This document shows positions 62,263 to 64,000 of a stretch of 64,000 bases of DNA, piece after piece. Source of the stretch: Squalus acanthias (taxonomy: Eukaryota); the NCBI GenBank assembly GCA_030390025.1, contig CM059431.1:146570001-146634000 (forward strand), read 5' to 3'. Position numbers and translations under genes: made by a program. The number at the start of each line of letters is the position of its first letter. Within the stretch, counting starts at the first letter, position 1. The notes under the pieces were generated by a model, which was not told the DNA's origin, searched no databases, and was given only the letters and a program-made list of their open reading frames with translations.

Positions 62263-64000
62263 ATGGCGACCACAAAGGGAAACTGGCAGCGAGAAAGTAA
62301 TGTGTTAGACCCTGGTTTGAATGGGCGAAATGTTATGGAAGAGAGAATAGCCGATTATGTTTTTGGGAAAGTTAATTTGACTAAGAGATGGATAAGTGAC
62401 CTGCTGGTGGATAAGCGTCCGCCAGACGCAGCCATCAGGTGGACAGGTAGCAAAGAACACAAAAAATCGGTGGAGAAAGCGGTTTGGCTGATGTGTTATA
62501 AAAGGCAAGTCCAGATTTCGGACCAGGTCATCGTAGCACAGGCAGCTCAGATCAAGGGTTTGGAGGTGGAGATGGAAGAAAAGGTCGCGGGGGGGCAGCA
62601 GCTCATCGCGTCCTTAAATGCGTTGCATCAGGAACGCCAGCTAGTCGCCAACCACCATGAGGCGAAAATAGATTACCTCGAGTGCCAGGTCACTGAGGCA
62701 AAATTAAATGAGGGCAGAATCAGGGAACGATTTGCCCGCCTAGCTGCTCAAATAAAAGCCCAGGAAGAGAGCTTAAAGGGAGTTAGGGCGGCATATAAAA
62801 TGGCCCTCGAAGATAAGCATGAGGGGGCCGACCACAGCGTCTGCCGGAGAGAGATAGGGAACCTTAAAGAGGCCCTGAAGAAAGCGCACGGCATGGTGTG
62901 CCTTATCAGCCCATCAGCACACCAGCCGCCGGTGGGTGGGGAATTCCAAAAATCCCTACCAAACAGAGCAGAGGAGGTATTTGCCACTGTGCCCTCCGCG
63001 CCACCCAGCTATTCGGCAACCTGGGTAAGGGAGGAAGTGGTAGAAGTAGAGGAAGTGGTCCCTGAGGTAGTGCAGCCCCCTGAGGTAGTAGTGAAGCCGG
63101 GACCGTTGTGTCCGGTCACGGGCCACAAGAGAGGCCCGGACAGAGAAAATGGGGAAGCGGGGAATCTGCTCAACCAGCTTGTGTTGCCTCACAGCTCACA
63201 CCAGCTGAGGGCTATGATCAGTCACGTACGGAAGCTGTCCGAGTCAGACGACCCTTCCGTACATTTCAGGGAGGTAGAGCAGTCCGCAGCCATTAACGGC
63301 TGCGACGATGGGGAAAGGGCTAAAATGCTGCTGTTCTCCTTAGACAGCTCGATCCTCCAGTGTCTCTCACACGCGAGTAAAAGGGGTAATAGGACCTATG
63401 AGGAGTTAAGAGAGGATGTCCTGGAAGTGTCGGGGGCGGACGAAGAAGGTCCGTTTGTTAAATTGGGACAGACTATGCAGATGTAGGGAGAACCCCCGAA
63501 GGTTTTCGCCGACAGGCTGTGGCCGGTATATTGGTGTAGCTGCCCAGGCGCGCCAGCGCGTCACCGCATAGACGGTGTTGGTTTAGCCCACTGGCTCAGA
63601 TGCTTAGTAGCCAACAGCTTGCCAGCCGTCAGGGAGCAGGCCAAAGTGTGGTTTGACCCCACTAACCTCATCACAACTGAGGAGTCGGTCTTAAACCAAC
63701 TCACGGTAGGGTACCGTAATACTAGGAGTACGGGAGCGCGTCCCCTTAAGGGAAAGGTGCATGAGGCACGGCCCGCAGCCTCGGCTCAAAAGGAGTGACA
63801 TCAGGAAGGAAATCACGTCCCGCAAGCCAGTAACGCTTGTTTCATGTGCAGAAAGACAGGGCACTGGCGCAAGAACTGCAGGAACCCTTGGAAGGAGTCC
63901 AGGGATAAAAATCCCGCAGCCCGAGCCCAGGCGCCTGCCTCCGATAAGGGAGCTGGTGTGCATATCCATCCCGATGCGATAGAATCAATGCTGGGAGCCA
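62263..64000 (+). pseudogene. gag: gag of an LTR retroelement/ERV with two in-frame stops (63484 TAG, 63796 TGA); runs off the window
   Basis: The 407-aa ORF continues in the same frame through QM*GEPPKVFADRL (MHR-like) to the CCHC knuckle CFMCRKTGHWRKNC (63838-63879). It has an N-terminal coiled coil and PSAPPSY. Confidence 0.85.

Follow-up and report, generated by a model that had tools for sequence, protein, structure and literature searches.

Snakehead retrovirus (SnRV) uses an arginine-type PBS, and in the SnRV clade Pol is made via suppression of the gag stop. Spumaretrovirinae have an RT in clade Tu and Pol from spliced mRNA; lokiretroviruses have an RT that is sister to Retroviridae together with Odin, a dual RNase H and an F-like env; Ty3/Gypsy elements have an RT within Metaviridae and a single RNase H, and Ty3/Arc-type capsids are not known to have an N-terminal beta-hairpin. 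The Gag of SnRV is described as non-myristylated, with a coiled coil, an MHR and one zinc finger (available parts of PMC2717909 and PMC1224870). The host range of clade Huo, the SnRV clade, is the widest according to the portions available of PMC6001957 and PMC4977317. CmiERV lineage I (scaffold 2) of the elephant shark clusters with SnRV by Pol (PMC4422223, in excerpt), and Odin elements have been described from sea anemones (PMC9040795, in excerpt).

We consider it quite probable that the window (the whole 64,000-nt stretch of Squalus acanthias DNA analysed here) contains the 5' end of one dead member of a retroelement family that is present in many copies in cartilaginous fishes and is likely an SnRV-clade ERV; this placement is made from Gag alone, pol and env lying beyond the window.

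Element boundaries and primer site

The edges of the element are given below, with the evidence for each in brackets.

60495..60604, strand unassigned: tail of a host interspersed repeat into which the element inserted, flank outside the element (blastn matches to window positions 39838-39948 and 59356-59462 stop at the LTR edge)
60607..62258, + strand: 5' LTR, 1,652 bp, TG...CA ends, TGTA/TACA inverted termini (boundary and PBS)
62264..62281, + strand: PBS for tRNA-Arg(UCG) (5 nt past the LTR; overlaps the ATG that opens the gag frame)
62263..62334, + strand: candidate leader of 24 codons in the gag frame, starting at the ATG that overlaps the PBS and ending ahead of the conserved Met (length conserved in homologs)

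The LTR runs from TGTAG (start 60607) to TTACA (end 62258). Its 5' edge is supported because the host repeat match breaks off at 60604 (blastn); the length of 1,652 bp is taken from this boundary and the PBS, the 3' LTR lying beyond the window. The very long LTR reported in the initial annotation is thereby borne out. A candidate TATA (61216) and a candidate AATAAA (62037) both lie within the LTR. A GAGAT microsatellite is present at 61449-61477 and short repeated blocks at about 61580-61655; contig joints falling there show that copies differ in this region. The first bases of the LTR (60607-60616) nearly match the LTR start of CmiERV scaffold 2, the LTR lengths differing about 2-fold. The 5' LTR junction (60533-60633) is spanned by one contig of run X5 with one difference, at a depth of 80, higher than that of several other listed contigs (16-23); this contig may be the locus studied here or a duplicated site.

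The 18-mer PBS is identical at 16 of 18 positions to the complement of zebrafish 3'tRF-Arg(TCG) (fragment from the available part of PMC4688932). Two points absent from the initial annotation concern the start of gag: the ATG of the frame at 62263 overlaps the PBS, and the Met at 62335 is conserved in all full-length close homologs. The leader is 24 residues long in the window, in the homologs P0001, P0003 and P0005, and in P0007, P0011 and P0017; homolog leaders start with MATTKG or MATAAG, both types having 24 residues. The two leader types are as expected if two tRNA-Arg(UCG) primer sites are in use within the family.

Gag reading frame

The gag frame comprises 579 codons, from 62263 to the window end, with two stops and no frameshift; tblastn against P0001 gave a single HSP in one frame with 56% identity. 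Domains and stops are as follows.

62335..62493, + strand: short helical matrix-like N-terminal region, non-myristoylated (M-[DE]-E-R start conserved; helices in a low-confidence model)
62494..62907, + strand: long predicted coiled coil, aa ~78-215 (heptads, homolog model; matches the coil region of the SnRV-like Gag in reference locus L042)
62992..63012, + strand: PSAPPSY in a variable spacer, where a PSAP and a PPxY resembling late domains overlap (sequence)
63112..63735, + strand: capsid domain, two lobes, 3' end approximate (begins at the Pro of a conserved C-P-V; broken by the stop at 63484-63486)
63478-63516, + strand: MHR, aa 406-418 (fits Q-x3-E-x4-F-x2-R)
63484-63486, + strand: first premature stop, within the MHR
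63796..63798, + strand: second premature stop, directly ahead of the knuckle (frame reading)
63838..63879, + strand: single CCHC zinc knuckle (nucleocapsid), CX2CX4HX4C (Pfam zf-CCHC and homologs)
63880..64000, + strand: Gag C-terminal tail, cut at the window end (homologs run about 30 aa further, then stop)

What the initial annotation had read in this frame was recovered: its passage over two isolated stops to an MHR and a zinc knuckle; the heptad-rich N-terminal region, here a proline-free coil of ~135 aa at about aa 78-215; the missing myristoylation glycine, Gly being absent at position 2 from both candidate starts; PSAPPSY; and the single CCHC knuckle, of which each full-length homolog has one. 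The features that it called unusual (coil, no myristoylation and one knuckle) are those of the published description of SnRV Gag (available part of PMC2717909). The MHR consensus was taken from the accessible Table 2 of PMC8278194.

Helices at 64-183 and 192-215 were modelled in a skate homolog with low confidence (pLDDT about 45-70), and the full-length model of P0001 (pLDDT 40) was too poor for structure search. The knuckle matched Pfam zf-CCHC at E 0.00098, just under the curated cut-off, and was the only Pfam match; Retrotrans_gag and Ty3_capsid were unmatched in three window segments and nine homologs. PDB sequence searches returned just knuckle rows and generic coil rows. A second piece of the element was not found elsewhere in the window.

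The first stop lies within the MHR, and the product would therefore be without the capsid C-lobe and nucleocapsid; it follows from the sequence that this gag copy is unable to make a full capsid, assemble or package on its own, and the budding competence proposed in the initial annotation is not supported for this copy. Read-through of this stop was considered and rejected, homologs being open at that position.

Late-domain motifs

PSAP (start 62992) and PPSY (start 63001) share a proline. Such an overlap was obtained in 3 of 200,000 composition shuffles. None of 11 homologs examined from other sources has an overlapped P(S/T)APPxY; the spacer is covered in 10 of them, P0026 beginning past it. 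The overlap is therefore not supported as a hallmark of the lineage. The spacer contains PPSY only in P0002, SPSY in four skate proteins, and PPAY followed by PSAP ten residues on in P0021; neither late motif is present in the spacer of P0006, P0007, P0024 or P0025. Among 36 reference retroviral Gags, a PSAP/PPxY pair is present in 17, at least 6 residues apart, and an overlapped pair in none. Retroviral Gags with multiple late domains have been described (PMC8402826, in the part available). No variant falls within 62992-63012 among the 40 variants listed for genome copies (334 more exist).

The likeness to Ebola VP40 consists of P(T/S)AP and PPxY with a common proline. The differences are that the motif here is known from sequence, in a dead copy, and that the overlap is not common to the homologs. 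If kept and functional in the subfamily, the overlapped motif would represent a minor instance of convergence with filoviruses.

Predicted capsid

The capsid of the natural homolog P0006 was modelled (AlphaFold, 16 rows; pLDDT 72), the N-terminal beta-hairpin (pLDDT ~85) and the N-lobe being confident and the C-lobe weak. The conserved Pro and the MHR Gln are spaced 122 aa apart in the window, as they are in 8 of 9 homologs examined. Best Foldseek rows in the PDB were MLV capsid (E 1.5e-3, 3.9e-3), then HIV, all weak; in BFVD one turtle-herpesvirus protein came first, followed by WEHV-2, Rhinella ERV and WDSV Gags, again weakly. A retroviral rather than an ordinary Gypsy nature is likely for the element, given the predicted beta-hairpin after the conserved Pro and the weak MLV and epsilonretrovirus rows. 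The top BFVD row, V5NX06, is 'ICP4c' of chelonid alphaherpesvirus 5 (E 6.7e-4, TM 0.39/0.16, rmsd 11.3); this match may be an artefact, or else part of a turtle herpesvirus protein may be gag-like.

VIA-align gave Z scores of 8.8 for Copia, 8.2 for PEG10, 7.7 for dArc1, 7.2 for MLV CTD and 5.9 for full MLV; only the MLV capsid was aligned across the whole model (residues 5-213, Z 5.9), and foamy capsids scored low (Z 5.3 and 4.5). This comparison confirms a retroelement capsid and does not separate the groups. ESM Atlas neighbours were Retrotrans_gag/Ty3_capsid clusters (0.91-0.95) and PNMA clusters, with shared-feature counts under 170 for the capsid part.

Relationship to the SnRV clade

Scans for RT motifs gave 44 reference loci, and 36 reference Gags were compared. 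Reference locus L042 (10,688 nt; coil, one CCHC, no Gly2, Arg-type PBS) is taken to be SnRV from its length and features, and its PBS is presumed to fit a tRNA-Arg isoacceptor other than Arg(UCG). Several SnRV traits are found in the element: a non-myristoylated Gag with a long N-terminal coiled coil, an MHR with a single CCHC, and an arginine tRNA primer (Arg(UCG), 16/18), the last a trait of SnRV itself and not clade-wide. Homolog Gags end in a stop codon.

The family profile matched the L042 Gag with an hhalign probability of 96.4 (E 1.3e-9). With the N-half profile L042 was the best match among the 36 reference Gags (33.5; next 15.4), against 20.3 for the best reversed decoy and up to 29.3 for heptad-block shuffles (n=100); this match sits in the coiled coil, a kind of region in which scores are inflated. 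No match was obtained in the profile search with the pre-coil region by itself. Capsid similarity to reference viruses is weak: with the capsid-only profile gamma-type Gags ranked first (L020, C-lobe E 9e-5), L042 reached E 0.21 for the C-lobe, and for the whole capsid it was absent among the first 14 rows. P0021, a distant family member (24% identity to the window, E 1e-17), matched the L042 Gag at E 0.002, and the two have in common a post-coil DWxxLxxxAxxY (1 of 253 ORFs; pattern chosen post hoc), which is absent from the window and its closest homologs. L042 further differs in a hydrophobic reading from an ATG that lies between its PBS and gag, of which the element here has none; in a Gag without P(S/T)AP or PPxY; and in a Pro-to-MHR spacing of 111 aa vs 122 aa here, capsid likeness being undetectable by profile.

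CmiERV-I was compared by eye, not computed, over the part of its source that was available. Its host is likewise a cartilaginous fish, and its Gag has, as here, a coil, a CPV capsid start, RLWxxY after the MHR, WL...DP and one CCHC; the Pro-to-MHR spacing, counted by hand, is 122 aa, equal to that of the family, and a post-coil DW..L motif is related to the one in P0021 and L042. In the same portion the LTR is ~0.8 kb (1.65 kb here), the PBS differs, the leader is several hundred bases long (71 nt here) and PSAPPxY was not noticed in the spacer. This apparent likeness would be the strongest link to the SnRV clade. The nearest kin are likely the SnRV clade, not foamy viruses or lokiretroviruses. 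Of the deeply divergent, spuma- or lokiretrovirus-related retrovirus proposed in the initial annotation, divergence and a likely retroviral rather than ordinary Gypsy nature stand; spuma kinship is not supported, and lokiretroviral kinship is disfavoured.

A more specific version of this placement is possible, though we think it unlikely: an undescribed elasmobranch branch on the SnRV side, combining an orthoretrovirus-type capsid, a foamy/loki-style 1.65-kb LTR, a gag start within the primer site and a working Ebola-type PSAP/PPxY overlap that this subfamily evolved independently and kept in its active copies.

Alternative placements

Were the element a lokiretrovirus or an Odin-side element, it would be the first in a cartilaginous fish; we regard this as improbable. 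A coiled-coil (smc-like) Gag head is indeed present here as in lokiretroviruses (smc-gag, PMC7947760; Bik-1, bioRxiv 2024.03.25.586437; both in part), and Loki-Bsp resembles the element by eye in its ~1.75-kb LTR, late AATAAA and 4-nt LTR-PBS spacer (PMC7947760, in part) and in a capsid helix pattern like the N-lobe of the family; lokiretroviruses including zebrafish BHIKHARI combine, in the parts of the sources available, the coiled-coil head with a long LTR and a capsid resembling MLV and Ty3. Against this, a CCHC is present here, and in two available examples the lokiretroviral Gag is without one, Loki-Bsp lacking it and Bik-1 having a glycine-rich patch instead. PSAP, PTAP, PPSY, PPPY and PPAY were not found in loki Gags in the part of the supplement searched, where line breaks can hide matches; 8 matches to TGGCGACC in the supplement part of PMC7947760 included none that was PBS-like; and the elements were reported in none of six chondrichthyan genomes (PMC7947760, in part). 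The Gag motifs match CmiERV-I by eye in its available portion. Gag affinities point to the SnRV clade.

Foamy-like (spuma) kinship, also raised in the initial annotation, would account for the length of the LTR, the very short leader, the coil at the N-terminus, PSAP and the missing myristoylation, and the PBS at 1763 in the foamy-type locus L028 is comparable to the 1.65-kb LTR here. It is nevertheless to be discarded in practice: MHR and CCHC are both present in the element, foamy Gags are without both (PMC8278194, accessible Table 2), CCHC is found in none of 16 foamy-type reference Gags, and foamy capsids rank low in VIA-align. For a retrotransposon of the Ty3/Gypsy type (Metaviridae) whose Gag has a coiled coil, a reading slightly less probable than the lokiretroviral one, speak the Retrotrans_gag, Ty3_capsid and PNMA neighbours in the ESM Atlas and the tie of retrotransposon-derived with retroviral capsids in VIA-align. 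Gypsy elements are also known with one CCHC, with a PBS for tRNA-Arg and with a short leader. The missing Pfam matches, the predicted hairpin, the alignment of MLV capsid alone over the whole model, the low Atlas feature counts of the capsid part and the Gag motifs common to the Pol-classified retrovirus CmiERV-I (in its available portion) argue the other way. An epsilon/gamma-like (class I) ERV whose N-terminus is atypical, rated marginally below the Ty3/Gypsy reading, would fit the capsid C-lobe, which scores best against gamma-type Gags, and the MLV and epsilonretrovirus Gags heading the Foldseek rows; these matches score weakly and centre on the MHR, and gamma-type and WDSV-type reference Gags mostly begin with MG and give no coil match.

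Family, copies and age

All homologs for which a source is named come from cartilaginous fishes (skate RefSeq, Scyliorhinus, Rhincodon, Heterodontus). The exhaustive protein search gave 20 proteins at E <= 0.001, the repeat-rich chance row P0023 being excluded. Skate RefSeq homologs have 50-57% identity; P0001, P0004 and P0005 are full-length skate 'uncharacterized' proteins (56-57%), P0003 is truncated, and P0002, P0006, P0007, P0025 and P0026 are Logan/ENA protein homologs without names. The open full-length Gag frames at the three skate loci are thus annotated as uncharacterized host proteins; they suggest recent activity or transcription in skate. Contigs matching the region numbered 6559, 4064, 3804 and 602 in four runs, the largest class being 90-95% alike. 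The family is many-copy, is present in at least three coded organisms and, as a whole, has been active.

Of the 36 variants listed within the element, 21 differ from the window in 90% or more of the depth in all three DNA runs, which may be from another individual or species than the window. The gag copy here reads as decayed because of its two stops and its differences from most other copies. The element copy is probably not very old, as CpG is less depleted (observed/expected: LTR 0.89, gag 0.69) than in the host sequence (0.56, window 1-60000). The recent integration suggested as possible in the initial annotation is unsupported, given the two stops and the many differences from most other copies, and dating needs the 3' LTR beyond the window.

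A Gag-Pol fusion of the family was not found among 8,000 longer candidates scored, which is weak evidence, and a related locus was absent from the metagenome, viral, prokaryote and phage collections searched. A prior description of the family was not found in a search that left out Repbase/Dfam and most subscription papers; the available parts of PMC10699275, PMC13524379 and PMC10435555 contain nothing on this Gag family.

Proposed mechanism

In the ancestral virus, the LTR would drive an RNA primed by host tRNA-Arg(UCG) at the PBS observed here, and Gag would start at the ATG in the PBS or at the conserved Met 24 codons on, both being candidate starts. The unmyristoylated helical head and coiled coil would mediate Gag oligomerisation and may reach the membrane without a lipid anchor, by comparison with SnRV, Ovex1 and foamy Gag. 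The proline-rich spacer, the motif of which varies by subfamily, may recruit ESCRT/Nedd4 factors. A putative protease cut ahead of Pro284 would free the predicted beta-hairpin capsid, and the single knuckle would bind RNA. In the copy here, loss of the C-lobe and nucleocapsid to the MHR stop would leave no assembly or packaging alone.

Neighbouring repeats

Two inverted copies, 99% identical, of a Penelope-like RT/GIY-YIG tail are present at 52897-53672 and 56614-57389. Their ORFs (52935-53705, minus strand; 56266-57351, plus strand) have no Pfam match at E 0.1. These copies are probably young because their CpG o/e is 0.98. Further short inverted copies are present at 52618-54112. A 26-bp minisatellite with 167 copies occupies 42740-47080, and a 40-bp array (16 copies, 94% match) occupies 9987-10628.

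Significance

The finding extends a known group and opens no new one, because the copy is broken and SnRV-like ERVs were already on record from a cartilaginous fish. The SnRV-like branch of retroviruses is deep and has been thinly sampled; an abundant family of elasmobranchs whose Gag frames are open in a skate would provide material on the assembly and budding of unmyristoylated coiled-coil Gags.
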